64,000 bases of DNA from the IMG/VR virus record IMGVR_UViG_3300035698_025354; one strand, 5' to 3'. The translations under genes and the position numbers were made by a program. Origin of the DNA: a virus. Taxonomy: Duplodnaviria; Heunggongvirae; Uroviricota; Caudoviricetes. Below the pieces are notes generated by a model. It was not told where the DNA came from and did no database searches. It saw only the letters and a list, made by a program, of their open reading frames with translations. Of this stretch, positions 1 through 54,898 are shown one piece after another. Position 1 is the stretch's first letter, and every line of letters begins with the position of its first letter.

Positions 1-3000
1 TATCAAAGCTATTAGTATCCCATTGTATTGGTGACGTATTCCTAAGACCAACATTTGGAACATTTATTCGCAACGCAAATGTTCCATTTGTGGCATTTAA
101 AATAGTTACTCGCTGTTGGTCCGATGATCCACCTCCATCTTGAATTGTGTCAATTTCAAATGTACCACCACCCAACGCCATACCGTTTACCTCAGACTGT
201 TTTATATTATCCCTTACTGATGTTGCTAAAAATGGATATGATTTCCAAGACCCTGAATTGTAAACAAATCCAGTTTCAGATTGTGATAATGCTCTGTTCC
301 AAAAAACAGCTTCATCTAATTTGAATGTGATCGGGTCATATGTGTCATTATATAACCCAAATACAATTGATTTAAATGATGAACTATTAGCAAAATTCCC
401 AGTTATTGAATCTTGCACAAAATCACCGCCATTAACATTGATTTTAACTAGACCATTTGAAAAGTCAAACACAACACCTATTAGATTCCAAGTGTTTAAT
501 GATAAAGTTTCGGATGTGTCTATAATCACTTGATCTGCTTCAGAACTTTGTATAAACAGTCTTATTTTATAAAGTTGTGATGATATTTTAATTATATCTA
601 ATGCAAAACATCCAAGTAAAGAAAACATCAGAAAGCTAAATTTGTTTTCTGTTGAATTTCCATCGGTGTCTTGCAGTGCTTCAACATTTATACCAAACAT
701 CATACTATAATCTGATGATGTTAACAATGGAGCAATATCTGATGTGCTGTTGCTAAATAAAATGTTCGATTTACGCATTCGAACACAATTACCAACTTTC
801 CCGGTAGTTCTTGATGGTAAATTGGTGTCTAAAGAAGCCGGTTCTAAATTAAGTGTTCCGGCAGAATCAAGCCTATCCCCAGATTCCTCTTCAAATTTCC
901 ATGCTGATATGACGTTTGAGGAAACGTCATATGATTCACCAGATAAAAAAGTAATCCGCCATTGATTGTCTGCTGGCTTTGTAACATTAATATCACTAAT
1001 CGTTATCCACGATGCGGCAGCTGCTATAGCAGATCTAACTGTGCTAGATGAAGCATTGTATGCTATTGCCGATGTTGTTGCGAATATGGACCCAGACGAA
1101 TCTATTGGATTGTATACAGTTATTGTAAATGTGCCACTTGATGCATTAACAGTGAGTTCTTGTATTTCATCAACACCAGCACCACCACTCCATTTGGTTG
1201 ATATTACATATGCGTCAGATGTTGAGTCTACAACTAATTCTGGTACGTTTTGGCCTTCAAAATCACCAATAAAATCAAAGAACAATTCACCGCTATACTC
1301 TATTTCTCTGTTAGTGGTATTGCCGGTTACTAATATGTTCCCAGCACCAATAGTGCTCAATCCTTCAAGAGCTGATTGAACATTGTCTATTGTCTCATTG
1401 CTGGATATACTAACTGTTCTCTGATTATTGAATTCTAGTGTATAATTTTGTTGTGTACTAGATGTCCTGCTTAATTGCTGCCTCTCATTAACTGCGCCAT
1501 CTCTGATTGTTCTAAACACAGCACTAGCGGTGCCAATTAAATTTGTTTCATCCGCTTCAATTGGGTCAATATTTTTGGCAGCTAACGATTCTTTAAATTC
1601 AATCAATAATGGGTCTATGGATGTTCCTTCACCAGTGACACCAATGTTTTTAGTCCCATCAACTACGCTCAGATTACCTAATTTGACTCTTATTTGTTCA
1701 ACACTAGCATTCCAAGGTATTGGGTCTGTTGTGCCTGAAGCACCATCTATAGTTACTGTTAGAGTATAGGTTCCAGCAGAAGCTGACGGTAATATCACAC
1801 TTTGGATCTCATTTTGTGATTCACCCTCTTGGATTGTGGCAACAATAACATTAGCAATACATTCTTGGTTAAAGAATGCTTCACCACCAGTTAATGATAA
1901 TAAATCAAATCTTAATATTCCAGCACCATTAATTTGTGGAATATCAATAATTGGATTACTAGAACCTGAAATAGAACCATTGGAACCACTAACTGACCCA
2001 TAATAACACTGGTCTAATCCTTGCCCATCATCAATATCTAGGACAAATTCAATCGCCTGCCATCGTGCTACTTCTCCGGAAGTGTTACTGCCATCTTCTT
2101 CGTCCCATCCTTCAGTGTTATCAACAGTTTCATGATATAAATCATCAATGTTTAATAATTTAGTGAATGATCTTGCTCCTGTCGATCTATTATATCCAAA
2201 GGTTATTTCTAATTCTGTAGCTGGGTCTGGTGAACACCCATCAGCTGATTCGTCAGCTGGATCAATGACATTCATTAACAAAAAGACAGTTGCCGATTCA
2301 ATAATACAATCTTCAGTAAAATTCGAATCTGTCTCTGGTAATTTACATATCGGGTGCCCTGTTGCTGTTCTTCCAATAATATCTTCTTGAGGTGCAGAAT
2401 AATTTATAATCGCTGCATCTGGGTTACCCTCCCCGTCAATTGGTATTGCCCATATCCTGTTTAGGTTGGGAGTAACACTAACAGTTGTACCATTGTTTGT
2501 AGTTGGTGCATTGACATAATTATCCATGGCAATTGGGTTTATTTCAACAACACCGGTCCCGTTATCACCATGTTGAGTCCACCTCGCACAATTTCCAACA
2601 TAATTAGAAACATTTTTTGATATTTGGTTTACATATGCAACATCTCCATTTAAAGGATTTGTTACCTTATATCTTATGAATGTCTTATAAACATTTACTG
2701 GTTGTCTTGGTGTTCCTATCCATTTTAACCCAACATGTGGTGACACTGCACTACTTATTCCACATCTTTGCACTCTTGAATTACATACCAATAATTGATC
2801 AATCTCAACTCTTCTTGGACCAACTTTCGAATATAATATCAATTCGCATACAACTCCAGTATAAGAATTTAATACACCATTATCCGGGATTTCAAAAGTA
2901 TAATCAAAAATGGCAAAAGATGTTAAGTTAATATTACCAGATGAAAATGACCCATTTTGATTTATTATATTAACAACATAATAAATGTCTTCTGGGTTGT

Positions 3001-6000
3001 CTGATACTAATGTCTCAACATTTTTGAACACACCAGCAAATCTCACTTTTGATGTTGACACTATCCCAAGAGTAGTATGTCCGATTCTTAAACCATCGCT
3101 TGTTGCGTCAGCGTAGATTATACCTTGTGTAGAAAGTATGCCCCAATCTAAGCTTGCAAATCCGTTTTTATTAGAAGTAAAACTATTGTTAGCTAAAACT
3201 GTGTCTGTTGCTAAACAGGTTAACTCCCCGCTCGTTCCTGTGCCGACACATATTAAAATTTCATTTATCTCTACTGTTGAAAGAGATGTAAGCGATTCTA
3301 ATCTTATACTAAATGAAACAATTCCAGAATCAGGAACAGTGGCACTTACTGATGCTGTTGTTCCTGATGTTATTTGATTTTTAGATAATAACACAAATCC
3401 GTCATATATTTCAAGTATCACTATCCCAGCTACGACAGAATCGACAATTCGTATTGTGAATGACACAATATCGCCTGGGTTAAGATCTGATATTGGGTTA
3501 CCTGATGAGAATGACTTACTAGCAGATGATGAATTTTCAGAAACTCTAATAATATTATAAAAATCAGATGTTTCTATTGGGTACAATGCTGTGAAATTTT
3601 CATCATTTCTATCTAATGTGAAAATAGTTTCACTATTATTTTCAGCTATTAATAATAAGCCGCTTTTTGTATCTACGAATAAACCATTTGGTCTATCTAA
3701 ATAATTAAATTCAATGCCATCGTTTGGGTATGGGTCATCTAATGTGATTTTTTCAAAATCACCGCCAGTGAGATTAAATTTTACTAAAGAAGCTGTTTTA
3801 GAAAATGTCGCTTCTGTCGCAACATATATTCTAGGAGCACTTATTCTTTGCCTGTCAATAGTAATGCTTCTGGCATTAATTAAATCAAATTCAGATGTGT
3901 GATCCAATATTTTTAGAACACCGGCACCGTCACTTCTTATTTTATACACCTCACCATCTGTGGTGGTTGTAGATCCAATCCAAAACAAATAATCAGTGTC
4001 TTGATCATAAATGATACTGCGTGGCCCTAATAGATCATCAGATGAGTATATTAAGGTATCATTGTTACCATCTAAATCGATTCTTCTTATTTCTTTTAAA
4101 TTTACATAAACATAATAAATATATTTATTGGTTAAATCTAAAGTCAACCCATAAACCCTGTCTGAACATGACAGTAATTTTACTTTATTAGCTCCACTGT
4201 AATCAACCCTATAAATAGCATTTTCTGTTCCACCATTACCTGTAATTTCTGACCAATATATATGTTTTGCTGTTGAGTCAGCATCCATTGCGGCAGAATT
4301 ACCACTACCGTGAACTATGATAGCAAGACCAGATCCGTCAAGTTCAGATGCTAAAATTCCTTCGCGAGTTGTGTAAAATAATTTATCTGTTTTATCTTGA
4401 TTACCAAGAAGTGGGCTATGATTATTGTAAAAGCTGCTTATTATTAAAGGCCCGATGTTATCTAATTTAACATCAAATCCTTTCCATCCCTTTAAGAACC
4501 CTGTTTGTGCGAATTGTGTGTAACTAAGTGATTGGAATCCACTTGGACAATCGATTGTTGAATCACCACTTACTGGTTCACCGCCGCCACTGCTTACACT
4601 ACCACCGCCACTCCCGCTTCCACTCCCAACACTAACATCACCGCCGCTACTGCTTCCACTTGGCGGAGGAGATATTACTGAAACATCGCAAAGAGTAACA
4701 CTCGAAACCCACACCTCTGAATTACCAATCAATTGGATAATGATATTTATAACTGGTTGGTTAGCCACGATGCTTATTGTTGGTATTGTTCCTTCAAGAT
4801 CGTTATTAAATGTAGTATGTGACTCACTTATTACATCGCCACCAGATGTTATTTGCTGTACAGTAAGCAATATTGACTCATCTATAAACAATGTCCCATT
4901 TAATTGTGAAATGCTCATCGAAAGATCATAAACATTTCCTGGAACTACGTCAACAAGTTTCGCTATACTATCACCTAAAATAGCACCATTAAAGCCAGGA
5001 AGATTTACAGTAGTGTTTCCTGGCTTTAAATGTGCTGAATTATAAAATGCTTTTATTCTTATTTCATCGTTGTTTGCACATGGTATACCACATTTTATTA
5101 ACCACCATGTTCTTGGGTCTATTGTCCCAATGAATATCCCGCCCTCAAAAGTCCCTTGTATGCTTGTAAGCGTAAATTTTCCATTTTCTAACACTGTGTC
5201 GCAATATGCACCACTACTTAACAACGTAATGTATATGTCACCGGGTTCTCCTACATCTGGTTGCGATGGTTGTATTTCTGTAAGCAGAAAACTTTCTACT
5301 ATTGGGTTGTCGTCATTAGCCAATATGACACCAACAATAAAGTTGGTATTATAAATCTGATGTGTCTTATCAAAATCATCTATTGAATCGTTTTCTTCTA
5401 TAACATAAAACGTTCCATCGATTGTGTTGTTACTATCGCTCACTTCATCATTTATTAAATTTTCTAAATCTAATAATGTGTCGGACCCAGAGATAAAGCC
5501 TGAAGTAGCACCAAATGTTGTATAAAATCCAGAATCTGCGTCTGATTTTCTTCTGAAATTAAATGAGAGTGTTGTTGTTGGCGTGATATTGCTTTCAGAC
5601 ATTTTTACAAGAACAGCACTATCAAATTCTTGTGTTAATTCTGGCTCTCGTATAAACGGGATTATTAATAATTTATTTGAAGAATAAAATCCGAGGTCTG
5701 CTCCAACTAATTCTTCTTCGGAAGGGCCTTCAAAAGTTTTTTGCGATGGTCCTTCTGGTGTATCAACCAACGATACCCCATTTTCTGGAACATTATCAAT
5801 AATAACTCTAAAAATTGGTAGTGTTGGATTTTCTGATGATGCTGTGTCTTTTGGTATTACTTGTAATGTTCCATCATTTGCACTTAGGTCTGGCCATTCT
5901 GTACTTTCATTCCAAGCGTCCTGGATACCTTGAAATATTCTGCTTGTCAGATCTAATGTATAATAATCAATTGATCCATCAACACCACCTGGGTATTTGT

Positions 6001-6559
6001 AGACTGATGAATATGGTATCTGCGACATTGTATTAACGACAGATATTTCTGATGTAGTTATTGTTGGTAAGTCCGGAGAATGAAATCTTAATCTAAAAGA
6101 TCCTCCGGCTGCGTATCCATCAACACCCAGTTGAAATTCAAATATCGCCTGTGTATATGTTCCGTCTGTTTCAGTCGCAAAATTTTTAACTAATTTTTTA
6201 AATTGCGATTGTACTTTTTGTGCCTTTAGTTTTTTTACACTTTCAGCTCTTTCTAATAAGTCATCGTCAAGATTATAATCTACGATTTCCAGAATTTGTT
6301 CTGCTGTTGGGACATTTTTATTTGGTGCTGGTGATATGGTTTTAGCGGTAGTTTTAATTATCGATGGGTTTTTGTTGAATGCTACTTGTCGTAATTTGAC
6401 GCTTGGGCTTGGCCCCTCGTCGCATTCTAATGCACCAGATAAATTATTACATATTGTATTTATTGCTTTACCGGTTTTTTGGGTAGCGATAATTACTTCT
6501 GTGTATGTTGGCTGGCCTAAATCTTGATTTAGATTTATGTCTTTAAAAGGGTTTGGCAT
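1..6559 (-). CDS. Giant virion/tail-associated adhesin-like protein (>2186 aa, 3' end runs off the window): Gly/Ser linker, YWTD-type beta-propeller, ~70-aa 'NEIQ..GTYTL..WNAS' repeats, LamG/concanavalin-like domain
   Basis: Not in the ORF track. I translated it by hand: ATG at 6559 (MPNPFKDINLNQDLG), frame stays open to position 2. Propeller blades (IYWSE, IYRVDYSGAN, LTLDLTNKYIYYV, IRRIDLDGNN, YDQDTDYLFWI) at ~3560-4400; LamG-type LDEAVFWNRALSQSE at ~250-320. Confidence 0.85.
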   Translation of the reverse strand, partial: MPNPFKDINLNQDLGQPTYTEVIIATQKTGKAINTICNNLSGALECDEGPSPSVKLRQVAFNKNPSIIKTTAKTISPAPNKNVPTAEQILEIVDYNLDDDLLERAESVKKLKAQKVQSQFKKLVKNFATETDGTYTQAIFEFQLGVDGYAAGGSFRLRFHSPDLPTITTSEISVVNTMSQIPYSSVYKYPGGVDGSIDYYTLDLTSRIFQGIQDAWNESTEWPDLSANDGTLQVIPKDTASSENPTLPIFRVIIDNVPENGVSLVDTPEGPSQKTFEGPSEEELVGADLGFYSSNKLLIIPFIREPELTQEFDSAVLVKMSESNITPTTTLSFNFRRKSDADSGFYTTFGATSGFISGSDTLLDLENLINDEVSDSNNTIDGTFYVIEENDSIDDFDKTHQIYNTNFIVGVILANDDNPIVESFLLTEIQPSQPDVGEPGDIYITLLSSGAYCDTVLENGKFTLTSIQGTFEGGIFIGTIDPRTWWLIKCGIPCANNDEIRIKAFYNSAHLKPGNTTVNLPGFNGAILGDSIAKLVDVVPGNVYDLSMSISQLNGTLFIDESILLTVQQITSGGDVISESHTTFNNDLEGTIPTISIVANQPVINIIIQLIGNSEVWVSSVTLCDVSVISPPPSGSSSGGDVSVGSGSGSGGGSVSSGGGEPVSGDSTIDCPSGFQSLSYTQFAQTGFLKGWKGFDVKLDNIGPLIISSFYNNHSPLLGNQDKTDKLFYTTREGILASELDGSGLAIIVHGSGNSAAMDADSTAKHIYWSEITGNGGTENAIYRVDYSGANKVKLLSCSDRVYGLTLDLTNKYIYYVYVNLKEIRRIDLDGNNDTLIYSSDDLLGPRSIIYDQDTDYLFWIGSTTTTDGEVYKIRSDGAGVLKILDHTSEFDLINARSITIDRQRISAPRIYVATEATFSKTASLVKFNLTGGDFEKITLDDPYPNDGIEFNYLDRPNGLFVDTKSGLLLIAENNSETIFTLDRNDENFTALYPIETSDFYNIIRVSENSSSASKSFSSGNPISDLNPGDIVSFTIRIVDSVVAGIVILEIYDGFVLLSKNQITSGTTASVSATVPDSGIVSFSIRLESLTSLSTVEINEILICVGTGTSGELTCLATDTVLANNSFTSNKNGFASLDWGILSTQGIIYADATSDGLRIGHTTLGIVSTSKVRFAGVFKNVETLVSDNPEDIYYVVNIINQNGSFSSGNINLTSFAIFDYTFEIPDNGVLNSYTGVVCELILYSKVGPRRVEIDQLLVCNSRVQRCGISSAVSPHVGLKWIGTPRQPVNVYKTFIRYKVTNPLNGDVAYVNQISKNVSNYVGNCARWTQHGDNGTGVVEINPIAMDNYVNAPTTNNGTTVSVTPNLNRIWAIPIDGEGNPDAAIINYSAPQEDIIGRTATGHPICKLPETDSNFTEDCIIESATVFLLMNVIDPADESADGCSPDPATELEITFGYNRSTGARSFTKLLNIDDLYHETVDNTEGWDEEDGSNTSGEVARWQAIEFVLDIDDGQGLDQCYYGSVSGSNGSISGSSNPIIDIPQINGAGILRFDLLSLTGGEAFFNQECIANVIVATIQEGESQNEIQSVILPSASAGTYTLTVTIDGASGTTDPIPWNASVEQIRVKLGNLSVVDGTKNIGVTGEGTSIDPLLIEFKESLAAKNIDPIEADETNLIGTASAVFRTIRDGAVNERQQLSRTSSTQQNYTLEFNNQRTVSISSNETIDNVQSALEGLSTIGAGNILVTGNTTNREIEYSGELFFDFIGDFEGQNVPELVVDSTSDAYVISTKWSGGAGVDEIQELTVNASSGTFTITVYNPIDSSGSIFATTSAIAYNASSSTVRSAIAAAASWITISDINVTKPADNQWRITFLSGESYDVSSNVISAWKFEEESGDRLDSAGTLNLEPASLDTNLPSRTTGKVGNCVRMRKSNILFSNSTSDIAPLLTSSDYSMMFGINVEALQDTDGNSTENKFSFLMFSLLGCFALDIIKISSQLYKIRLFIQSSEADQVIIDTSETLSLNTWNLIGVVFDFSNGLVKINVNGGDFVQDSITGNFANSSSFKSIVFGLYNDTYDPITFKLDEAVFWNRALSQSETGFVYNSGSWKSYPFLATSVRDNIKQSEVNGMALGGGTFEIDTIQDGGGSSDQQRVTILNATNGTFALRINVPNVGLRNTSPIQWDTNSFD

Positions 6560-6596
6560 TTCTGCTCTCGCTCAATTGTTTTATTTAATTTTGAGC

Positions 6597-7031
6597 TTAG
6601 AGACCAGATACTTTGATGGTTTTATCCCCATCAAGTTTGTTAAGAATAGCTTTTCTTTTTTCTTCTTTAACCTGTTCAATAAGCTTAAGCATTGACTCTG
6701 CACCTTTTTCCATTTTGGCTGTAAATGCTTTTTTGATTTCTTCTTGATCAAATTTTGCTACTAATAATGGATCAATATTTTTCATTCTAGATACAGCAAC
6801 ACCTAATTGTATCCTAAACCAATCATCTTCTTCATCCCAAGGCTCATTTAATTTTGGAGCACCAGTCTCTTTCAGGCATTCTAGGAATATTTTGTATTTG
6901 ACGGTTTCTTCTACTATCATATCCCATTCTTCGTCGGTTATTGCTGTATGTAATTCTAGCATTGTGCCATCTTCATACACATTAATTGAACCGTTAAATG
7001 AGAAAATGGTTGGGTGTTTTTGCTTATTCAT
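6597..7031 (-). CDS. Hypothetical protein
   Basis: 144-aa ORF overlapping the upstream gene in a same-strand run. Confidence 0.75.
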   Translation of the reverse strand: MNKQKHPTIFSFNGSINVYEDGTMLELHTAITDEEWDMIVEETVKYKIFLECLKETGAPKLNEPWDEEDDWFRIQLGVAVSRMKNIDPLLVAKFDQEEIKKAFTAKMEKGAESMLKLIEQVKEEKRKAILNKLDGDKTIKVSGL

Positions 7032-7464
7032 TTTTAGCCCATTGTCTTATTAATTTATTAATTCTATTTTGTTCTCTTTTAGCCGCTGAGTCGTTCGGAA
7101 ACAAATAACTCTCAGGCATCCATTCGTCATGCTCATTAACGTAGAAGAATTCACCAGTATCTTTACTTCTTACAATACTATTTACTTCAAACTCCTCTAT
7201 TACAAGTTCAGATCTTAATAAATGAACTATGATTTCAAAATCACTATGATGTAGCTTTGGTAGCATCGCTCTATGTGGCCATGCTTTTTTTGCTGGTCCT
7301 CTTGTGAAAGTGGCTTTAGGATGGTGTTCATCCATCCATTGATCATCCTCACTGAGAGGTTCTATGTTTTCTAAAGGGCGTAGTATGATCCAATAAGCTT
7401 TATCGCCTATCTTATACTTCGCCAATTCAAAAACCGACTCAATACGTTTTCGCATATCATCCAA
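7024..7464 (-). CDS. Hypothetical protein
   Basis: 146-aa ORF with 8-bp overlaps at both ends. Confidence 0.8.
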   Translation of the reverse strand: MDDMRKRIESVFELAKYKIGDKAYWIILRPLENIEPLSEDDQWMDEHHPKATFTRGPAKKAWPHRAMLPKLHHSDFEIIVHLLRSELVIEEFEVNSIVRSKDTGEFFYVNEHDEWMPESYLFPNDSAAKREQNRINKLIRQWAKNE

Positions 7465-7741: not shown

Positions 7742-8557
7742 TTAATCTAATTCCCTATAATCTGACCCAATCAAGCATTCTAATCCGTCCATTGCCAGAC
7801 TAAAAGTTTCAGATTTCGTATTTGCGGAACCATATCGTCTCCCCAGATTTGGTTCTAAAAATAGCCAACCAGAGAAATTACTGCTCTGGGCGTCTTCTAA
7901 GGTCTGCTTTAAATTACAATCACCAAACCCAGGAGATTTAAAACCCCTCCCAACAATACAATCCCTAACGTCAATTGCCGCGACATTATTTTTAAGCAAT
8001 GACCAATACTTTACAAACGGATCTATTTTTCTTTTTATGATAATTTGAACTGGGTCATATAAAATTTTCCATTTTTTATGCTTATATAATAAATTGGCAA
8101 CGCCGGATGGTTCAACAATCTGAGCATCATTTGTTATCTCAAGAATTGGGATAATCCTACTTTTAATACAAATATCCGTTATTTTTGACATCCACTCAGA
8201 AATAGTGGAAGAAGTGTCATCATTGACTTTTGTTCCGATAAAAATTCTAATAGATTCAGCACCAAAATATGATGCAATATCAAAAACCCTATTTATTTCA
8301 CCATCACTTATATCCATTAATTTATTAGACGGGACTTTGCCTAAATTTGAACATATTGAAATAACTGATATATTATTATCATTTAACAAAGTTCTTAATT
8401 TATTACAAGATTGATCACTATTGTCGCATATATTTTTATCGCCCCAAGAATTTCTTAACACTACGTATGATATATCATATTTCTTTAAAGTTTCACAGCT
8501 AATGATCGGATCTTCGCCTGCTTCATCAAGATAGCTAGCTATTTTAAACATATTCAA
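7742..8557 (-). CDS. Xylose isomerase-like / AP-endonuclease-2 TIM-barrel protein
   Basis: Pattern 'L..LL.D..I.VISI', 'FDIASYFGAESIRIF', 'PILEIT', 'ILYDP', 'AIDVRD', 'G.GDCN', 'FSGWLFLEP' matches sugar-phosphate isomerase/epimerase barrels. Confidence 0.75.
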   Translation of the reverse strand: MNMFKIASYLDEAGEDPIISCETLKKYDISYVVLRNSWGDKNICDNSDQSCNKLRTLLNDNNISVISICSNLGKVPSNKLMDISDGEINRVFDIASYFGAESIRIFIGTKVNDDTSSTISEWMSKITDICIKSRIIPILEITNDAQIVEPSGVANLLYKHKKWKILYDPVQIIIKRKIDPFVKYWSLLKNNVAAIDVRDCIVGRGFKSPGFGDCNLKQTLEDAQSSNFSGWLFLEPNLGRRYGSANTKSETFSLAMDGLECLIGSDYRELD

Positions 8558-8595: not shown

Positions 8596-9714
8596 TCAGA
8601 GAACACAAATATCGTTATTATTTGGACCTGTGCCAACCACTGAAACTGGAATACCGGCATTATCTTCAACCATATGAATAAAATCCATTACTTTTGTTGG
8701 TAATTTTTCATACTCATTACATTGGTAGCATGACCAATCAATATAATTTGCAAAATTTAATGCTATTTTAGTTGCACCATTAGATAATACTGCTTGTTTT
8801 AATTGCTTATTTGAAAATCCAAAAGCTCTACGCAATCTTTTTGTCACAGTTGTTAATTCTGTTTTGCAAATATTATTTGCAATGCTTTCTGGTGCTCCTG
8901 AATCAGCCATGATTTGTTCCCATGTCATTTCTTCATGATCGTCATAACATCCACCGGAATGTCCGACCACTTTATCATTTTCAACAACATTACCAACTCT
9001 GATCGGGTATGGGCGAATTACTAAATAAATGTCGCCGACACAATGTAATGGCAACCCCATATCAGCCACATTTTGAATTGCTGTGGTGCCTCTGCTTGTG
9101 CAGTTTGGGTAATGTGACCCATGGTTGATGTCTAATGAAAATCCTTGAGATCCTTCATGTAACATCGTGTGGTCTTCATACATAATTCTATTATATAACG
9201 TTTGCGGCAATGAATCTCCTTTATACACGTATTTGTCTAATTCATCGTAATCACGTGCCAGTTTTAATTCTTTGCGACGCATAATTTTGTCAGCCAAGAA
9301 TGCTCCACATCCTTGCATTGTGCTTGCGATATGTTTTGTTCCGGAATCTAAGTCACATTCAGATGTTTGATGATCTTTTGTGATAACCCCGGATCTAGGG
9401 TGAATGATTAAATCTTCTGTCTTGGTTTCATCAATCTCTTTTAGTAATTGGTCTATGTGAAGAGCAGCACTTGGTCCAATTACAATTGTTGGATTATAAT
9501 CATCCATCCATGTTTTTAATGCAGCCGCAGATGGTAAGGCTTTAGCGATGAATTTTCTGTCAGAATCCCATACAGCTGTATGTCCAGCATTAGCCATATT
9601 TGTTGTCGATAAAATTTCCGGTTTATGAATGCTAGCTAAAGCAGTTGTGATTAGCCCTTTTCCAGTGCTTCCCCATTGGCCGTCAGTTACAATATTGAAT
9701 CTGTTAGGTATCAT
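8596..9714 (-). CDS. purZ: PurZ, N6-succino-2-amino-2'-deoxyadenylate synthase (PurA paralogue of Z-genome phages)
   Basis: DGQWGSTGKG (Ser in place of PurA catalytic Asp13), NAGHT, EGSQGFSL, YPNCTSR, PIRVG (PurA has TRVG), ELTTVTKRLRR, and LNFANY in place of the PurA guanine-specific TKLD. Confidence 0.92.
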   Translation of the reverse strand: MIPNRFNIVTDGQWGSTGKGLITTALASIHKPEILSTTNMANAGHTAVWDSDRKFIAKALPSAAALKTWMDDYNPTIVIGPSAALHIDQLLKEIDETKTEDLIIHPRSGVITKDHQTSECDLDSGTKHIASTMQGCGAFLADKIMRRKELKLARDYDELDKYVYKGDSLPQTLYNRIMYEDHTMLHEGSQGFSLDINHGSHYPNCTSRGTTAIQNVADMGLPLHCVGDIYLVIRPYPIRVGNVVENDKVVGHSGGCYDDHEEMTWEQIMADSGAPESIANNICKTELTTVTKRLRRAFGFSNKQLKQAVLSNGATKIALNFANYIDWSCYQCNEYEKLPTKVMDFIHMVEDNAGIPVSVVGTGPNNNDICVL

Positions 9715-9757: not shown

Positions 9758-10129
9758 TTATCTTAATGCGGCTGAATTTATGATGTCATATCCGTCATCG
9801 CCCCAACCAAGCAAATGCATTTTATTATTTACTTTATCTAATAAGTTGTTATTTTGCATAGATGAGAGAGCATCTGGAAGATCTATAATTCTTATCACAA
9901 TATCTTGGATATTATCATTATCATCTTTTAAAATATGTTGAATTGCTACTTTATTTGTTTGTTGCAATGCTCTTTTGATTTCTTGAGCTAATTTTAAAGA
10001 CTTTAATTCTTCATTTAATTCATCTATCTTTTCTTGTATGCTACTTTCTTGTCTTTGTAGCCATTTGTCATTTCTGGCTAGAAGGTGTGCATTATTTCCT
10101 AATTCATCAATCGTTTTCTTTAGGTTCAT
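9758..10129 (-). CDS. Hypothetical coiled-coil protein
   Basis: 123-aa ORF with heptad-like E/K/L/Q N-terminal half. Confidence 0.7.
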   Translation of the reverse strand: MNLKKTIDELGNNAHLLARNDKWLQRQESSIQEKIDELNEELKSLKLAQEIKRALQQTNKVAIQHILKDDNDNIQDIVIRIIDLPDALSSMQNNNLLDKVNNKMHLLGWGDDGYDIINSAALR

Positions 10130-10454
10130 GTTGTTTGATCCAATGTTGTGGCATCCAAATTAGTTGATTGTCTAATTCAACTCTATAATGCTTATGTTTT
10201 TTTGACTTAATGATTCCTATTTGATTATGTAATGGGTGCTCTTTGTTGTCAACAATTATTACTGTTCCTATATTTAACAGTGGTATTTGTTCTTTTATAA
10301 ATGTATTTTCTGATTGATATTCATTACTTATAGTAATAATATCCATACAAAATTCACAAAGAACAAATGGATTTTCACCTATATGGACATCTTGTGGTAT
10401 GATATTGTTGTAACATCCGCAATTGTTACATATCTTTTTCACTATTGTCGCCAC
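10107..10454 (-). CDS. Zn-ribbon plus KOW/SH3-like protein
   Basis: CxxC...CxxC, then 'IGTVIIVDNKEHPLHNQIGII...YRVEL'. Confidence 0.6.
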   Translation of the reverse strand: MATIVKKICNNCGCYNNIIPQDVHIGENPFVLCEFCMDIITISNEYQSENTFIKEQIPLLNIGTVIIVDNKEHPLHNQIGIIKSKKHKHYRVELDNQLIWMPQHWIKQHEPKEND

Positions 10455-11139
10455 TATTTAAAATTCTATAAATTCCCTCTGGTTGTTTATTAAATTCATT
10501 TATAATTGTTTTAGCTTGCATTAAGCTGACAGCAAATTTATTTGTGTCTTCACAAGCAGCTATTGTTTTAATGTCGTTTATATTTCCGCACACTTTAATC
10601 GGTATGCCTATAATATCAAGAATTTTTTTGGTTGTTTCGTTATGGATCTTTGGATTCGCCTTACTAACTTGTGTTTTTAAGTTAATGCCGCATCTTAGCA
10701 TTGTGGGTAATGGCATTTTCGTCAGCCCCTTTACAATACTTTCAACATCTGGGTTATCTTGCGTGTTTATCACAAATCTTATTTCCACAATACTTGATAT
10801 ATGTGTCTTGATAAAATTTGTGATAGTTTGAGCCTCTTTACGAGTCTCTATTTCACCATTTTTGGATGATAACATTATTTCGAAACCATCGGCTTCTAAA
10901 GAGTCGATGTTTAATCCTCTGAATTTTTGATCTGGTCCAAAATTTTCACCTTTTGGCCAGTCGATTGGTGTAATGATATTAAATCTACCACCGATCGATC
11001 CACGGATAATATGAGCATCGCTTGCTAATGTTGGGTGAACTATCAGAGACGGGATTGAGTGTTTATATGCTAATTCTGCGGCTTCATAGATTTCGCTTTT
11101 TTGCATAACATCGATTTCAAGCCTGTTTATTATACTCAC
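10426..11139 (-). CDS. DeoC/DERA-like TIM barrel with the Schiff-base lysine position occupied by Arg
   Basis: Colinear DERA motifs: LIVHP (vcv.P), TPIDWPKG (TVigFPlG), EADGFEIM (GAdEiDmV), IRFVINT (lKVIiET), MLRCG (FiKTS), IKVCGNI (vKasGGI), KFAVS (RiGtS). Confidence 0.65.
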   Translation of the reverse strand: MSIINRLEIDVMQKSEIYEAAELAYKHSIPSLIVHPTLASDAHIIRGSIGGRFNIITPIDWPKGENFGPDQKFRGLNIDSLEADGFEIMLSSKNGEIETRKEAQTITNFIKTHISSIVEIRFVINTQDNPDVESIVKGLTKMPLPTMLRCGINLKTQVSKANPKIHNETTKKILDIIGIPIKVCGNINDIKTIAACEDTNKFAVSLMQAKTIINEFNKQPEGIYRILNSGDNSEKDM

Positions 11140-11524
11140 GATTTATTCCCATCTTTTTTAATGCAAAATTAATTGCTTTTTCTTCATCGATAAATCTGTT
11201 TACACAATCAAGATAATAAAATGTTTTCTTTTCAATCTCTTGATTGGTATCAGACAAAATAATAATTGTTTTACCAAGTGCTGTGCCAGCACCTAATTCG
11301 AAATGGGCTCCAGATCTACCTGGTTGCACGAAAAATAGGATATTTGATTCTAAAACTCCATGGTACTCGTCTTTAGCATATTTACTCAGTTCTTCTTCTG
11401 AGAATACTTGTCCATGTGTTGTCCAATCGTGTGTGATCTCAGCACCATAATTTCTAAAGATACTCATGATATGTGCGGCACGTTCTTTATTAAGCAGGCT
11501 TGATGCAACATATATCTTATTCAT
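11117..11524 (-). CDS. Nucleoside 2-deoxyribosyltransferase-fold protein, probably a dNMP N-glycosidase (DNPH1/Rcl/MilB-like)
   Basis: KIYVASS; E..GV..SNILFFV; PGRSGAHFELG..ALGKTII. It has the catalytic Glu and a Ser where transferases have Asp. Confidence 0.8.
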   Translation of the reverse strand: MNKIYVASSLLNKERAAHIMSIFRNYGAEITHDWTTHGQVFSEEELSKYAKDEYHGVLESNILFFVQPGRSGAHFELGAGTALGKTIIILSDTNQEIEKKTFYYLDCVNRFIDEEKAINFALKKMGINREYNKQA

Positions 11525-11595: not shown

Positions 11596-12573
11596 TTATA
11601 ATTTTTGTGCATGGTCACGTATATGATCAACCGCTTTTTTATGACTCATTGAATTAAATGAATTCACAAATTCCCACGGATTATATTCAGTACAAAACGT
11701 AAATTTTTTACATTCCTCTTTGGTCATTGCTTTTATTGCGAAATCATATGATTCCGACTCTTTTTTGAACCGTTGTGCTCTAATTTTTGGCTCAACGTCT
11801 GGGTTGACTCCATAAAAGTGCAATTTTCCGTTTAATCCTTCTGGGTTCATATCACATCCAAATATATAAATATGATCAAACCCCATCCATAAAGCTATCT
11901 GCATTGATGCAAATACTGTGGATCTTCCAATATATAATCCTTTTGTCATATTTTTACTAAACCCGGTTCCCCCAAGATATTTGAATTGTATGGAACTGGA
12001 TTTTTGTTTTCTTATGGCTGTGCTATTAAACAGTGTGCCTTCATATCCCTGCCAAAGATCTTCATTTCTTTTATATTGTGATAAATCAAAAAACGACCAA
12101 TATGTTGTCGGCCATAATCTTAAATCTGGTTTATTTATTGACAATGTGTCGATTTTATTTACATGTTTTAGTTTTTCTAACGGTGCTTCAGATATTGATG
12201 GTCCATTGCCTATTATAACTAATATTCGGCCTTGACTTTGCCTGTGGATACCTTGGATTTTTGCGAGAGATTCGCTAGATATTTCTTTTGATATGTACTT
12301 TACTCGTGGGATGTGTTGTTTTCTTTGCAGCCCTCTTACTGGTTGATTTTTGGTCGATTGTTGTTTTACTTTTGGGACTGATTGTTGAATGACTTTTTGT
12401 GGTCGTACGGCGTTATTTGTCTTTACCGTTTTTTGTTGACTTTGTTGATAATCTATTGATTTTGCAGCAGATGGTTTTACCATTATATTAATGGTTTTTG
12501 GCACATTTATTATTTTATTGGTTTTGTGTATTTGTGGCTTTAATCTTGATTGAATAACCGTTTGTTTGTGCAT
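11596..12573 (-). CDS. DUF115/MptE-like (Maf-type glycosyltransferase fold) protein with a K/Q-rich disordered N-terminus
   Basis: ILVIIGNGPSI, TLSINK, STVFASMQIALWMGFDHIYIFGCD. Confidence 0.75.
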   Translation of the reverse strand: MHKQTVIQSRLKPQIHKTNKIINVPKTINIMVKPSAAKSIDYQQSQQKTVKTNNAVRPQKVIQQSVPKVKQQSTKNQPVRGLQRKQHIPRVKYISKEISSESLAKIQGIHRQSQGRILVIIGNGPSISEAPLEKLKHVNKIDTLSINKPDLRLWPTTYWSFFDLSQYKRNEDLWQGYEGTLFNSTAIRKQKSSSIQFKYLGGTGFSKNMTKGLYIGRSTVFASMQIALWMGFDHIYIFGCDMNPEGLNGKLHFYGVNPDVEPKIRAQRFKKESESYDFAIKAMTKEECKKFTFCTEYNPWEFVNSFNSMSHKKAVDHIRDHAQKL

Positions 12574-28478: not shown

Positions 28479-30773
28479 ATGTCTAATGATTGCTCGATTA
28501 CAACACAAAATTTGCCCAAAACGGGGGTTGACGGGCAAGAAATATGCGACAGATATGGCAGCAGATGGGTATACGATTCAGGCAGTAAAGCTTGGCTATC
28601 AAAGGGAACAATATCTGTTCCACCAATAGTATCTGAAAATAATAATGGTCTTATATCAACAGATATTTTTGAAAAATTGCTAAAACTTAAGCAATTTATA
28701 AATGGTGATGTAAGTAATGTAACACCATTTAAATTATTGCCTAACACCGAAGCATATTGGTATTATTTTCGCACAAGTGATAAATTATTTAGATTTAGGC
28801 AAGAAGGGCCAGATACTCTTAGGATAGAAATAGACAAAGGCAGAATCTTCCAGATCCTGATGAAACAAATATGTCCCGGAAGAAAGGGACTGCAGGGGCC
28901 ACAAGGTGATAAGGGGAATCCTGGGAATCTTGGACATGCTGAACAGTGTTATCAACCATCTGTGGATGGCGATAAATTAGATTTTGCTATTTTTACACCT
29001 ACTCCGTTGGCTATTGACGGTTCGGTATTATTACCAAATGATCATGTCCCAGAGATTTCTGTTAGGTTGTTTAAAGTTTTTGGGTCTTCACAATCTGTTG
29101 ATTTACATGTCGAAGATCAACTAAATGCTCTTGCGATATATTTTAAAAAATTTGATAAATCAGACCCAAATATTCCAAAGTTTGAAAGAACAAGACAATT
29201 ATTGATCAATCAAAATATTTCTAATCAGGCGGTTGGTTCTTGTGATATGCCGTTGAGTGAGATTTTGGTTCTTGGGTCTGGGTCTTCTGTAAATGCTTCA
29301 CCTGATGTTACTATTAATATTAGTCCAGCTAATGCTAATAATGTGACTGTTGACTTTGATTCTGATATTCCCATCGACAGGAACCGCACATTACAATCTA
29401 TTACGTTCGATTCTGAGACCAATATTGTTTGTGGTAGTGTTTATCTTGAATCTGGGAATTCTTGGAGTGGGTCTTGGTGTGTTAAATCTAGGCAGAAGGG
29501 TCCAGATGGCCCAGATGGCGACCCCGGTGAGTGTACTATTAAAGTTGTTGAGTGCACGATAGATGATACTAATATTTTAGCTACATGTCCTATTGTTAAT
29601 GTTCGTGCTGATTGCGATTTGGACATTATCTATACTTTGTGTGCGGATGTTATTGATGAGTTTTGTGTTGATTCTATTCAACTTGTTGCTGGGTCTGGGG
29701 TTCTTGCTGATACTAATAGTTTTAAGAGTGTTTTTGCGTCTGCACAGGTAACACTTGATGAATGTAAGAGGATTAATCGTTATGAAGTTGATTTACCGGA
29801 TGATGAGGTTCCTGAATTAGATCTTGTCCACTGGGACCCTCAGCCGGGGTGCTTTTCTAGGAGACATTATGACAGGCATAAGTTCGATTGGATTCCACAT
29901 ACTGATATCCCGGCTTGTGATGCTACGGCAACATGGTTTGGGGTTAATTCAGCTAAAGCTGGTAAATATCCGTATGGGCTCATTATTGCACCTGAGCCTC
30001 CTGAGGACGAGTGTTGTCAAGATGATTTTTTCTATTGTCCTAATGTTCAAAACGCACCGTGTGACGGAGAGACACCGCCGCCTCCGCCGCCTCCTCCACC
30101 TCCACCTCCACCGCCGCCTCCACCGCCACCGCCGCCGCCTCCTCCACCGCCGCCGCCTCCCCCACCGGTCCCGCCCCCGTCATGTTTAGTCGGGGACACG
30201 CCGATCGATGTGCCTGGTGGGACAATATTTATATCAAATATCAAAACCGGTGATAAGATTATCGGTAAAAACGGGATTGGTATAGTTGAGAAAATTATAT
30301 CAAGTAACGTAGAATTTACATTGAAAATTGTTATTGGCAATGTAATAATCGAATGTTCGGATTCTCACCCGTTTGCGGTGTTTGGCAAAACATCTGATTT
30401 CACGGATGAATCACAATTTGCGATAGCTCGTAATTTATCTATTGGGGACCAATTGATTGGTCCAAATGGCTATCATAAAATCGATGATATAATTATTGTT
30501 AATGAACCAAATACTGTCTATAATATGACAGTATCTGATATGCATAATTATATCAGTAATGGCGTATTTAGTCATAATAAGGATGAACCTCCGCCACCGC
30601 CTACGCCACCGCCTACGCCGCCGCCTACGCCGCCACCTACGCCTCCGCCACCACCATCCCCAGTCGCGGTGGCTTCTAAGTCTGCAAGTGACGTACATAC
30701 TAATTCAAAGACTATTGGTAGTAGTCACTCTGATTTTGATCAGGGAAGTAGACGTTGGAATATTAAGACTTAG
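28479..30773 (+). CDS. Collagen-repeat, polyproline, Hint-domain protein (probable virion fibre/surface protein)
   Basis: G-X-Y runs (GRKGLQGPQGDKGNPGNLG; KGPDGPDGDPGE), 31 consecutive Pro (30075-30167), Hint domain CLVGDT...SDSHP...VYNMTV...NGVFSHN (30183-30578), then (PPPT) repeats. Confidence 0.88.
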   Translation: MSNDCSITTQNLPKTGVDGQEICDRYGSRWVYDSGSKAWLSKGTISVPPIVSENNNGLISTDIFEKLLKLKQFINGDVSNVTPFKLLPNTEAYWYYFRTSDKLFRFRQEGPDTLRIEIDKGRIFQILMKQICPGRKGLQGPQGDKGNPGNLGHAEQCYQPSVDGDKLDFAIFTPTPLAIDGSVLLPNDHVPEISVRLFKVFGSSQSVDLHVEDQLNALAIYFKKFDKSDPNIPKFERTRQLLINQNISNQAVGSCDMPLSEILVLGSGSSVNASPDVTINISPANANNVTVDFDSDIPIDRNRTLQSITFDSETNIVCGSVYLESGNSWSGSWCVKSRQKGPDGPDGDPGECTIKVVECTIDDTNILATCPIVNVRADCDLDIIYTLCADVIDEFCVDSIQLVAGSGVLADTNSFKSVFASAQVTLDECKRINRYEVDLPDDEVPELDLVHWDPQPGCFSRRHYDRHKFDWIPHTDIPACDATATWFGVNSAKAGKYPYGLIIAPEPPEDECCQDDFFYCPNVQNAPCDGETPPPPPPPPPPPPPPPPPPPPPPPPPPPPPPPVPPPSCLVGDTPIDVPGGTIFISNIKTGDKIIGKNGIGIVEKIISSNVEFTLKIVIGNVIIECSDSHPFAVFGKTSDFTDESQFAIARNLSIGDQLIGPNGYHKIDDIIIVNEPNTVYNMTVSDMHNYISNGVFSHNKDEPPPPPTPPPTPPPTPPPTPPPPPSPVAVASKSASDVHTNSKTIGSSHSDFDQGSRRWNIKT
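30075..30179 (+). repeat. CCN codon run encoding Pro31-Val-Pro3
   Basis: Read directly; mixed CCG/CCT/CCA/CCC codons. Confidence 0.95.
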
Positions 30774-32190: not shown

Positions 32191-32465
32191 TTGATTTTAC
32201 TTTAAGCATGCTTTTGTTTACATCTTCATTGTTTTTGTGTGTGCTGATGTGTAATGTTACAAGGGTTGTTGCGGCTATTGAACGATATGTTGATTCTTCG
32301 AGAAATATTAATAATTTTTCAAAAAGCAATGGATCATCGGCTGTGGAAAAATCACCTGATTATAAAAATAATAAGGTTTGTCCCTCTGATGTCCCTGAGA
32401 TTCCGCCTGAGGTTTTGGTCCCTCAATTAGGAACTTCTCATAAGGGTTTTGGTCGTAATGTATGA
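32187..32465 (+). CDS. Small membrane-anchored protein
   Basis: N-terminal hydrophobic helix; ATGA overlap with the upstream stop. Confidence 0.7.
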   Translation: MIDFTLSMLLFTSSLFLCVLMCNVTRVVAAIERYVDSSRNINNFSKSNGSSAVEKSPDYKNNKVCPSDVPEIPPEVLVPQLGTSHKGFGRNV

Positions 32466-32731
32466 GACATGGTCCATTACATAAATTATTTAAAAACACT
32501 AAAGCACATGGTATGTTACACCAATTTAGCCAAGACATACGAGTAAATAAAAGTGTTGTTGTTGGTGATGGGAAAATAGTTGTTAGTAAGAGGGTTGTTG
32601 ATTTAGAATCTAAAATAAAACCAGTTCCGAAAAAATTCAATGAATTATCAGAGCCAGAATTATCAGAGCCAGAATTATCAGAATTTAATGTGTATAAATT
32701 AGGTGAAATTTTCACAGGCAGGAGAATTAAG

Positions 32732-33829
32732 ATGAAAAATTTAGGAATCGACATTGGCACAAAAACAATTGTAGTGGCTTTTCGAAATGATAAAGAAAAG
32801 ATCGATTACATTCATGAGATTAATGGTTATTGGCCATTTGAACGAGCGTCAAAATTTATTAAAAATATGCTAGATGATCCGAATAAAGTAAGATCCGATG
32901 GGACAAAAAGATCTGCTAGATGGATAGATATCAATGACCAAGTAATAGTAATTGGCAGGGACGCAGAGGAATTTGCATATTCTAAAAATGACACGCTTTT
33001 AAGACCGATGGCCGATGGTGGTATTAGTTCTGACGAAGAAGCGATGACTGTTCTTGCGACAATTGTTCAAGGTCTCATTGAAATGTCTGAAAATGAGATA
33101 GGTGAATTCGGTGACGAAGTGAAAATTTGTTATTGCACTACTGCTCCAGCGATCAATAAAGAATCTAATATTGAATACCACGAGCGTGTTGTTAATTTAA
33201 TTATTGACAATTATAAAACAGAATCCAAAATTTATAGAAGTAATATTAAGGAATCTCACGCTATTGTCCTTGACATGGATGAAGCTGGTGATGGCACTGG
33301 TATTGGTGTTTCCTGGGGTGCTGGTACTGTTACTGTTAGTTATGTTAAATATGGTGTCGAAATTTATTCGTTCTGTTATGTTGGTGCTGGTGACTGGATT
33401 GATATTGAAGTTGCTAGACGTCATGGATATGATGAAGATACATCTAAGACTCGCAAGAAAAAAGCCTCCGAAACACCAACGACAGTGTCAAAACGTAAAA
33501 TGACGATTGACTTGACTGAAAAGAATAAACCAACAGACAGAGTTGGCATTGATATTGCTTTGCATTACGAAGTTCTTGTAAGTAGGGTTATTGACGGCAT
33601 TGTTTCCGGATTTAAGGAAAATGAGGCTGAAGCCCGCATTGAAGAAGATATTAATATTTATATGGCTGGGGGTACAAGTTCTCCAAATGGATTTGTAGAA
33701 CTTGTAAAGAAAAAATTCGATGAACTTGATGTGCCATTTACAATTGGTTCAATTAATAAGTCGGATAAGCCACTATATAGTGTTGCTGCTGGTTGTTTAA
33801 AGGCAGCAGAGTATGGAATAACTGATTAA
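32732..33829 (+). CDS. Actin-like ATPase (MreB/ParM/MamK superfamily)
   Basis: LGIDIGTKT (phosphate 1), IGVSWGAGTV (phosphate 2), GAGDWID, IYMAGGTS (adenosine), PLYSVAAG. GGAG RBS before ATG 32732; in-frame upstream extension to 32462 is possible. Confidence 0.85.
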   Translation: MKNLGIDIGTKTIVVAFRNDKEKIDYIHEINGYWPFERASKFIKNMLDDPNKVRSDGTKRSARWIDINDQVIVIGRDAEEFAYSKNDTLLRPMADGGISSDEEAMTVLATIVQGLIEMSENEIGEFGDEVKICYCTTAPAINKESNIEYHERVVNLIIDNYKTESKIYRSNIKESHAIVLDMDEAGDGTGIGVSWGAGTVTVSYVKYGVEIYSFCYVGAGDWIDIEVARRHGYDEDTSKTRKKKASETPTTVSKRKMTIDLTEKNKPTDRVGIDIALHYEVLVSRVIDGIVSGFKENEAEARIEEDINIYMAGGTSSPNGFVELVKKKFDELDVPFTIGSINKSDKPLYSVAAGCLKAAEYGITD

Positions 33830-37025: not shown

Positions 37026-37424
37026 ATGAATATGAAATACCTACCAGAACTTAAGCATTCTATTAATATGTATCTTCGCTTTGGTTTTGACGTTGAAAAA
37101 CTTGGCCGTTTTGCTATTAAATTTATAGACTTTTTGGAAGATGATGATGAACTTAGGGTTGACCTTGAAATGGCTAGAATGTCTTGGCAAATTGTGATTG
37201 AAATTATTACGACTTTATACGAGACGACTAATGCGGAAACAAAAACTGAGCATTTAGATACCATTATGAAAGCACTTGGTGCTGTGTCGACAAGTAAGAA
37301 TGCAGATCTACCAGATGAATATATATCTGGTAAAAACGCAGCGATTGCTGTTATGCTGAAAATGACTGATGAGTTGATTAATAAACCAGATCTTTTTGAT
37401 ATAAATGGAAAGTTATATGATTAG
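37026..37424 (+). CDS. Hypothetical helical protein
   Basis: 132-aa ORF between the dnaE halves. Confidence 0.75.
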   Translation: MNMKYLPELKHSINMYLRFGFDVEKLGRFAIKFIDFLEDDDELRVDLEMARMSWQIVIEIITTLYETTNAETKTEHLDTIMKALGAVSTSKNADLPDEYISGKNAAIAVMLKMTDELINKPDLFDINGKLYD

Positions 37425-37857
37425 AGCATATTGTGCTACTGTTAGTGATGAATCTGATGAGTTTTATGGTGGTGGAATAGTTCTTAGGCTTATTGATCAA
37501 TGGGATAGATGTGTTACAAGAGAATTTGGTGTTCCTTTTGGTGGTTCTGGAGATCGTTTATCTCAAATTCAGATCTTGAGATTTTGTTTGTCGTCAGTTA
37601 GGCCGGGTAATAGAGATTTTGAAACATTTGTTTATGTAGATAATGAATCTGTGATAGATGTTTTACTTGATAAATGTAATGATGGCGATGATTATTATAA
37701 AGAAATTCGTGAGTTAAAACAATGGTTTGGATATTATTCTAATCTTAAGATTAAAATTGAAGAAAATAATTCTGAGTATTTGATGAATAGAGCCAAGTCG
37801 TTGGCTTATAATGCCGCTAACACTCAAGAATATTTTGATAGTGAAAAAGATGGATGA
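37417..37857 (+). CDS. RNase HI-like fold protein with degenerate catalytic residues
   Basis: RAYCAT..GGGIVL, FVYVDNESVI, NRAKSLA align with the y.DG..G.G, v.tDS and N..AD.LA motifs; likely ATG at 37417. Confidence 0.5.
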   Translation: MIRAYCATVSDESDEFYGGGIVLRLIDQWDRCVTREFGVPFGGSGDRLSQIQILRFCLSSVRPGNRDFETFVYVDNESVIDVLLDKCNDGDDYYKEIRELKQWFGYYSNLKIKIEENNSEYLMNRAKSLAYNAANTQEYFDSEKDG

Positions 37858-54844: not shown

Positions 54845-54898
54845 TCTTTAATAAGGAATTGGGACGATCAAGATTTGTTGATCGTCCCAATCTGTATC

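Follow-up and report, generated by a model that had tools for sequence, protein, structure and literature searches.

Does a large tailed phage that appears to replicate with a bacterial-type DNA polymerase make 2-aminoadenine (Z) and build it into its DNA? The question arises from a gene in a 64,000-nucleotide stretch (hereafter, the window) of the Caudoviricetes record IMGVR_UViG_3300035698_025354 in IMG/VR. The initial annotation, made from the letters of this DNA, described it as PurZ, the enzyme of Z genomes, in a “T4-core jumbo” phage with the family C polymerase DnaE as its apparent replicase. The observation of a PurZ-type gene is confirmed: a 372-amino-acid (aa) open reading frame (ORF) runs from ATG to stop on the minus strand at positions 8596 to 9714, exactly as first claimed. 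The interpretation as a whole is partly supported. We give an even chance to the reading in which this PurZ-type synthetase leads to the deoxynucleoside triphosphate of Z (dZTP) and to DNA that is copied by DnaE and contains at least some Z, with adenine being removed by an NDT-fold protein encoded nearby.

The PurZ-type enzyme and its active site

By its active-site residues, the protein is a PurZ-type (succino-amino-deoxyadenylate synthase-like) enzyme. It matches the adenylosuccinate synthetase family (Pfam ID PF00709) at 1.7e-33 and PHROG 1211, “2-aminooxy adenylosuccinate synthetase,” at 3e-58. The top match in a sequence search of the PDB was PurZ of phage phiVC8 (PDB ID 6FM1; 3e-37), followed by PurA of Pyrococcus horikoshii (1.6e-35) and then by PurZ of phage S-2L (PDB ID 7ODX; 3.7e-34). 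The substitutions relative to PurA on which the original assignment was built are all present, in the motifs GSTGKG (residues 15 to 20), PIRVG (residues 237 to 241), TTVTK (residues 288 to 292), and NFANY (residues 320 to 324).

A search of deposited phages for near-identical DNA returned none, and the closest deposited phage protein, the “PurA” of Bacillus phage vB_BpsS-140 (GenBank accession number MH884512), is only 38% identical, which indicates a clade without a cultured member. An identical copy of the 372-aa protein is found on an 85-kb ENA contig. Several metagenomic relatives from the PurZ clade (P0121, P0122, P0126, P0130, and P0134) are 750 to 1,200 aa long and are interrupted by one intein or two, with homing endonucleases of the LAGLIDADG type. 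The insertions lie near the NAGHT and EGSQG motifs; at least two catalytic-motif sites are occupied among the relatives, and one protein has two inteins. Such sites are typical of indispensable genes, so their location fits a gene that the phages cannot lose.

Pocket residues were taken from the paper on the structure of S-2L PurZ with deoxyguanosine monophosphate (dGMP) and dATP (PMC8342488) and mapped onto the window protein. The latter retains S16 (equivalent to Asp13 of PurA), N42, A43, G44, H45, T46, S131, T132, R146, Q190, C205, T206, R239, V240, the tip of the aspartate loop (T288 to K292), and R295. In the dGMP pocket, 20 of the 22 mapped residues are identical to those of S-2L PurZ, the only exceptions being the replacement of Y203 by Asn and of G130 by Ala. 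The PurZ-specific insertion after V240, which has been linked to steric exclusion of the 2'-OH group (PMC8342488), is present as well. Across 22 relatives of the protein, 130 alignment columns are invariant and S16 of the GSTGKG motif never varies.

The adenine (ATP/dATP) pocket is also retained, with N320, F321, N323, Y324, G363, and P364. In the columns of the four motifs, PurA of Escherichia coli has GDEGKG, TRVG, ATTGR, and TKLD, and Pyrococcus PurA has GDEGKG, TRVG, GTVTG, and TMLD; the window protein thus differs from PurA in having Ser in place of Asp13 and Asn (N323) at the position of the guanine-specific Asp. In the column of N323, Asp is found in both of these PurAs and also in PurZ0, where the last motif of the phage Ghobes protein reads LSFAD (D302). 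The residues of the adenine pocket (N320, F321, N323, Y324, and P364) argue for an ATP-type rather than a GTP-type enzyme, in agreement with the initial annotation. According to a bioRxiv metaGPA study, PurZ is discriminated from PurA by S14, T262, F295, and Y298 (phiVC8 numbering), as well as by F12, and mutation of the PurZ Ser to Asp abolishes substrate selectivity. The first four of these residues are all conserved in the window protein; F12 is replaced by Trp, as in PurA.

A homologue search yielded 2,722 representative clusters; for 324, the E value was 1e-30 or lower. Among the best 150 representatives, none has the PurA-type GDEGKG P-loop, and Ser occupies the position of PurA Asp13 wherever the motif is readable (about 130 of them). 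Two trees were built, a quick one of 107 rows and a careful one of 76 rows, both rooted on GDEGKG-type PurAs; archaeal Asp-type PurA is not among their rows and was compared only through the PDB alignment, one residue at a time. The window protein falls into a Ser-type group (support, 100/99) that lies outside PurA and PurZ0, with PurZ0, the group of the Ghobes and Arthrobacter proteins, forming a clade of its own (100/100). It is nested in an 8-row clade from jumbo-phage contigs (100/97), which belongs to a 27-row clade (100/97) and then to a 39-row clade (99/96), and it is found outside the 10-row clade (100/97) of the characterized PurZ proteins (phiVC8, S-2L, PMBT28, Acinetobacter, and ZP6). 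Judging by its sequence, the window protein thus appears PurZ-like by every residue test, yet it belongs to a new, uncharacterized sister subfamily outside the curated family.

The proposed pathway, its gene module, and the replication genes

In the pathway that we propose, the PurZ-type synthetase would use ATP to convert dGMP and aspartate to N6-succino-2-amino-2'-deoxyadenylate (dSMP), which host PurB and host kinases would carry on to dZTP. A replisome with a split DnaE would then place Z opposite T, and the resulting DNA would be Z substituted at least in part. The exclusion of adenine would be the task not of DatZ and MazZ but of a cotranscribed NDT/DNPH1-fold protein, presumed to be a dAMP N-glycosidase like DmtZ, probably with the assistance of a second dUTPase paralogue that is seen in complete relatives. 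The deoxyribose-5-phosphate (dR5P) set free in this way may be handled or sensed by a DERA-fold protein. We infer all of the substrates in this scheme, as well as the presence of Z in the DNA.

Relatives of the window protein are encoded at 34 IMG/VR loci, including complete genomes of 354 to 408 kb; those with 50 to 70% identity come from contigs of 150 to 408 kb, several of which are complete according to CheckV or by their terminal repeats. The entire window is collinear with the region from 85 to 149 kb of the 408-kb relative, G001 (63 ORFs; mean identity, 50%), which can therefore serve as a fair proxy for the rest of the genome. G001 and three other complete relatives (G002 to G004) encode the T4 gp23 capsid protein (~1e-80). 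The description of the source as a T4-core jumbo phage could not have been read from a 64-kb window alone; the size of the collinear complete relatives and their gp23 capsid now speak for it. A different background is seen in G005 (the IMG/VR contig behind locus L035, with loci L133 and L136), a ~360-kb phage with a PurZ of ~40% identity, whose family A polymerase is full length and is accompanied by a DatZ-like HD protein; this phage has neither DnaE nor a gp23-type capsid. PurZ is therefore found in at least two unrelated jumbo-phage backgrounds.

The PurZ-type gene belongs to a module of seven genes, all on the minus strand, whose order is conserved in 18 to 26 loci. At the upstream end is a 325-aa MptE-like/DUF115 protein (11596 to 12573; Pfam ID PF01973, 2.5e-7), which is syntenic in 25 loci and has a weak PHROG match to sialyltransferase. 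It is followed by a 135-aa protein of the NDT superfamily (DNPH1/BcmB/NDT fold; 11117 to 11524), with a match to PHROG 12607 and a below-cutoff match to Pfam ID PF05014 (9.7e-5), and by a 237-aa TIM barrel of the DERA fold (10426 to 11139), recognized from an AlphaFold model and Foldseek. Then come two conserved proteins of 115 aa (10107 to 10454) and 123 aa (9758 to 10129), with homologues at the same position in 10 and 18 related loci, respectively, the PurZ-type gene itself, and, directly downstream of it, a 271-aa xylose-isomerase-like/AP_endonuc_2 TIM barrel (7742 to 8557; Pfam ID PF01261, 7.7e-7, just below the cutoff), found in 18 loci.

Searches of PDB sequences with the NDT-like, DERA-fold, and PolA-like (see below) proteins gave nothing useful; the first two were resolved by folding. 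The model of the NDT-like protein has a pLDDT of 93, and Foldseek places it closest to BcmB, NDT, and DNPH1, the set of structural neighbors that has also been reported for DmtZ. Y5 and E76 are invariant in its family, and a comparison with DmtZ of phage Ghobes (gp53) detected no sequence similarity (E value, about 0.5). DmtZ is an NDT-family dAMP hydrolase/transferase that splits dAMP into adenine and deoxyribose-5-phosphate, and it is encoded in PurZ0 phages together with a Dut-like dATP/dGTP diphosphatase (PMC12884076). On the strength of its modeled fold, the 135-aa protein is a candidate dAMP N-glycosidase and functional analogue of DmtZ. Both NDT and UDG domains have been associated with dZ-enriched aquatic contigs (bioRxiv 10.1101/2025.10.22.683976); the window also encodes a UDG-superfamily glycosylase (43824 to 44489, plus strand; Pfam ID PF03167, 4e-12).

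For the 237-aa protein, which has no sequence match in Pfam, PHROG, or the PDB, the model has a pLDDT of 87, and nearly all of the top 50 Foldseek matches are DERA, with TM scores of 0.6 to 0.8. R149 and K182 are invariant. The complete relatives G001, G002, and G004 encode two dUTPase paralogues each, located in G001 at C1:384834-385223 and 167933-168268; one of them looks canonical and the other is divergent, and one G001 dUTPase forms the C-terminal portion of an ORF of 375 aa. By analogy with the PurZ0 phages, these paralogues are candidate DutZ-like dATP/dGTP diphosphatases.

All of the DnaE domains (PHP, pol3-alpha, fingers, and HhH) are present in the window, divided inside pol3-alpha over two ORFs on the plus strand. 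The N-terminal half (35575 to 37017; 72% identical to that of G001) contains PHP and the first ~98 positions of pol3-alpha, and the C-terminal half (38410 to 41187) contains, according to domain profiles, the rest of pol3-alpha, the fingers, and HhH. The same split is seen in all four complete relatives, G001 to G004. Two small ORFs of 150 and 200 aa lie between the halves (37405 to 38413, plus strand); their conservation in G001 rules out a recent mobile insertion, and neither these two nor the other uncharacterized ORFs of the replication region match any PHROG. The split region contains no intein domain, and scans of the window for Rfam families and tRNAs returned no hits; an intron that splits dnaE is thus not in evidence.

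No family B polymerase was found in G001 to G004. However, DnaE is not the only polymerase, as a minimal family A-like protein of 432 aa with palm and fingers only (51520 to 52818, plus strand; PHROG 2573; Pfam ID PF00476, 1e-6, below the cutoff) is conserved alongside it in these four genomes; tblastn with three DpoZ queries did not match it. The same strand encodes a bacterial-type RecA (47473 to 48606; Pfam ID PF00154, 2e-102), a DnaB-like replicative helicase (48924 to 50264; Pfam ID PF03796, 8e-15), and a 5'-3' exonuclease of the FEN/Pol I N-terminal type (54875 to 55738). The view of a phage with DnaE is thus supported, and that of DnaE as the apparent replicase has to be qualified for the PolA-like gene. 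When the S-2L Z cluster was expressed in E. coli, Z amounted to 3.9% of A in the chromosome and 12 to 23% in plasmid DNA; in principle, therefore, dZTP is a usable substrate for a family C replisome.

Three other products of the window may be mentioned. An ORF of >2,186 aa at positions 2 to 6559 (minus strand), whose counterpart on the ENA contig is 2,375 aa long, contains a Laminin_G_3/concanavalin-like domain and is probably a fiber or surface protein. A 764-aa ORF (28479 to 30773, plus strand) has a Hint/intein-splicing-like domain near its C terminus (PT-HINT, 2e-8), and a 455-aa protein (32462 to 33829, plus strand) matches the actin-like Pfam family Volactin (Pfam ID PF25216, 1e-42) and is 68% identical to its counterpart in the 408-kb relative.

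Weighing Z substitution against other uses of the module

A number of observations, collected in this section, weigh against the proposed pathway. The first is the lack of the usual helper genes: as had been suspected for datZ, mazZ, and dpoZ, sequence searches of the window and of the collinear 408-kb genome detected no DatZ, MazZ (of either type), DUF550, or DpoZ, and the same queries succeeded in control loci. An HD protein adjoining DnaE in G003 was considered as DatZ and rejected as not DatZ-like. Without a dATPase, substitution may be only partial. It is nevertheless plausible, by analogy, that the “missing” helpers have substitutes of the kind published in 2025 and 2026, namely, the NDT-family protein and the dUTPase paralogues.

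The lack of a dATPase and of a Z-selective polymerase also fits an alternative in which the PurZ-type enzyme, the NDT-like protein, and the Dut paralogue manipulate the nucleotide pool, draining or rerouting host dGMP/dGTP and dAMP for takeover or to counter host defenses based on deoxynucleoside triphosphates, with little or no Z ending up in virion DNA. We regard this alternative as unlikely. Once dSMP is made, it is reportedly converted to dZTP by host PurB and kinases (PMC8342488), Z incorporation by an ordinary family C replisome has been observed, and such conservation of the module would be hard to explain if its product were not used.

Palindrome counts, observed versus expected, provide a sequence-only test: replacement of A should give partial protection to restriction sites with A/T but none to GC-only sites. 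As Z would predict, GC-only sites are the most depleted ones. GCGC is nearly eliminated, with 2 copies versus 50 expected in the window and 2 versus 486 in G001, and all five testable GC-only 6-bp palindromes are essentially absent from the latter. Several 6-bp sites, namely, CTCGAG, GAGCTC, CCGCGG, GCCGGC, and GGGCCC, are missing from G001. However, depletion in the window extends to 7 of the 12 4-bp palindromes with A/T, and G001 has only 2 copies of GGATCC versus 83 expected and 4 copies of AGTACT versus 56 expected; BamHI and ScaI are not on the list of enzymes reported to digest dZ-DNA fully. For comparison, the Z genome of S-2L shows depletion of 2 of 11 A/T-containing 4-mers, and its most avoided 6-mer is the site of SalI, an enzyme that does cut Z-DNA. 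The palindrome evidence is weak because about half of the tested enzymes cut Z-DNA anyway. The depletion of A/T-containing sites, which also favors pool manipulation, argues weakly against full substitution.

Members of the clade are found in cellular genomes, too. A scan of species genomes revealed 55 loci encoding a relative of the window protein. Three of these (L092, L093, and L097) are contigs of small Z phages binned into metagenome-assembled genomes (MAGs), with DatZ, MazZ, and DpoZ encoded beside purZ; their recovery is a positive control for the helper-gene searches. About 48 of the 55 are from MAGs of gut Bacillota/“Tenericutes” (contigs of up to 430 kb) and encode a PurZ-type protein with GSCGKG, TTVTK, and LNFAQY motifs and a NUDIX (MutT-like) domain that is either fused to it or encoded next to it; the locus lies beside ymdB and recA (for example, L049, L065, L086, L087, and L095, with ~40 other loci; the gene is at ~6001 to 7050 of each). 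In two of the five gut genomes checked, both of them small, this NUDIX-PurZ is the sole PF00709 gene found. PurZ-type genes of the clade are also carried by the chromosomes of the myxobacteria Sorangium sp. So ce131 (L048:6001-7871) and Chondromyces apiculatus (L047).

Since the clade includes chromosomal bacterial genes, the PurZ signature alone is no proof of a Z genome, and the NUDIX-PurZ relatives, found where a Z genome is not expected, again favor a role in pool manipulation. The gut genes imply either that PurZ chemistry serves a function in cells or that its signature has less diagnostic value than has been supposed; they could represent a cellular PurZ-type pathway, a defense island, or such a less diagnostic signature. 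In Sorangium, the PurZ-type gene is directly followed by one for a 253-aa protein with a C-terminal dUTPase domain and an N-terminal extension of ~110 aa, an arrangement that recalls the DmtZ-DutZ fusions of PurZ0 phages.

The finding of a clade member as the only PF00709 gene in those two small gut genomes would suit a second alternative as well, an ordinary adenylosuccinate synthetase, i.e., an ATP-using analogue of PurA that works on IMP or GMP as the product of an auxiliary metabolic gene and boosts AMP/ATP. The family models are ambivalent in this respect. The window protein scores 210.2 bits against the NCBIfam model for PurZ (NF038379), whose cutoff is 300 bits, and 211 bits against that for archaeal-type PurA (NF003295), whose cutoff is 368 bits, a tie that is due to its archaeal-PurA-like C-terminal third. 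It stays below every PurA equivalog cutoff and is thus a member of the PF00709 superfamily only. The 39-row clade that includes the window protein joins the characterized PurZ clade with a support of only 83/58, and we know of no characterized member within it. What stands, therefore, is the Ser-type group, distinct from PurA and PurZ0; membership in the characterized PurZ clade or in the NF038379 family does not.

Finally, R293 occupies the position of R303 in PurA, where phiVC8 PurZ has Lys, and so the use of ribonucleotides is possible. Against these points stand the replacement of the catalytic Asp13 by Ser, the residue on which the substrate selectivity of PurZ reportedly depends, and the presence of the complete set of pocket for the guanine 2-amino group, V240, and deoxy-selective insertion, as well as neighbors with deoxyribose-related folds (NDT/DNPH1 and DERA); besides, the gut MAGs may be incomplete. 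We therefore find an ordinary synthetase quite improbable.

Least probable of all is a module that makes some other modified purine nucleotide or a nucleotide-sugar hypermodification from an aminated or succinylated intermediate, which the PurZ-type enzyme would supply and which the MptE-like protein, the TIM barrel, and both small proteins would process further. In its favor, no role is assigned to four members of the module, glycosyltransferases abound in the window, which also encodes a 2OG-Fe(II) oxygenase, and the DERA-fold protein seems to be noncatalytic as an aldolase. However, no known pathway takes this course, the conservation of the PurZ pocket matches its known substrates, and the extra genes may be unrelated neighbors kept by regional collinearity. 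The last of the favorable points bears on the proposed pathway, too. The Schiff-base strand of the DERA-fold protein reads MLRCGIN, with the invariant Arg149 where a lysine is expected, and the lysine seems to be missing. Going by the model, this protein may bind dR5P rather than cleave it.

For Z substitution, then, the even chance given above applies to DNA with at least some Z. A stronger version, in which a T4-like DnaE phage lineage of 350 to 400 kb has fully or largely Z-substituted genomes without DatZ, MazZ, or DpoZ and relies on a sister-clade PurZ, the NDT-fold protein, Dut, and the DERA-fold protein, seems to us doubtful.

Comparison with known PurZ systems

To our knowledge, the Z genomes documented so far are all those of small phages (~40 to 80 kb) with DpoZ or PrimPol. 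In a search of the literature on PurZ or 2-aminoadenine in jumbo phages or in phages with DnaE (DNA polymerase III), no account of this clade came up, and the two most relevant papers of 2025 and 2026 make no mention of PurZ in such phages. The PurZ system of this lineage is a genuine and new variant; its chemistry is plausible, although unproven. If the proposed pathway is correct, Z-DNA would extend to genomes ~10 times larger, by far the largest Z genomes; these would be the first Z genomes copied by a family C polymerase, so that a bacterial-type DnaE replisome would suffice in nature; and there would be a third, convergent route of adenine removal, after DatZ/MazZ and DutZ/DmtZ. As the clade is abundant in metagenomes, effects on sequencing bias, on restriction-based methods, and on host defense would be ecologically relevant.

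The “PurA” of phage vB_BpsS-140 belongs to the same large clade as the window protein and has the same C-terminal architecture. It is an uncharacterized protein of a 55-kb siphovirus, encoded near recA, and shows the variants GSEGKG and ATVTG. Archaeal short PurA (P. horikoshii, PDB IDs 2D7U and 5K7X; NF003295) shares with the window protein its deletions and C-terminal segment, and the two families come out nearly equal in the PDB search (126 bits for archaeal PurA versus 132 bits for PurZ), as they do in the NCBIfam scores (211 bits with NF003295). However, archaeal PurA is an IMP/GTP enzyme with GDEGKG, GTVTG, and TMLD motifs and has no insertion after the Val.

With the PurZ0 phages, the window lineage has in common the lack of DatZ and MazZ, an NDT-superfamily gene beside that of the synthetase, and, in the relatives, Dut-family paralogues in the genome. 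It differs from them in having N323 in place of Asp, in an NDT-like protein that shows no similarity to DmtZ, and in the extra DERA-fold and TIM-barrel genes. The characterized PurZ proteins (phiVC8, 6FM1; S-2L, 7ODX; Salmonella phage PMBT28; and Acinetobacter phages; NF038379) are 31 to 37% identical to the window protein and share with it the fold, the Ser in place of Asp13, the dGMP pocket, TTVTK, the N-F-x-N/Q-Y and Pro pocket, and the insertion after the Val. In contrast to them, the window protein has an archaeal-PurA-like C-terminal third and a Trp in QWG and belongs to its own clade (99/96). The genomic settings differ accordingly in scale: characterized PurZ proteins come from siphoviruses and podoviruses of ~40 kb with DpoZ or PrimPol, whereas the lineage represented by the window consists of T4-like phages of 350 to 400 kb that encode DnaE and neither DatZ nor MazZ.

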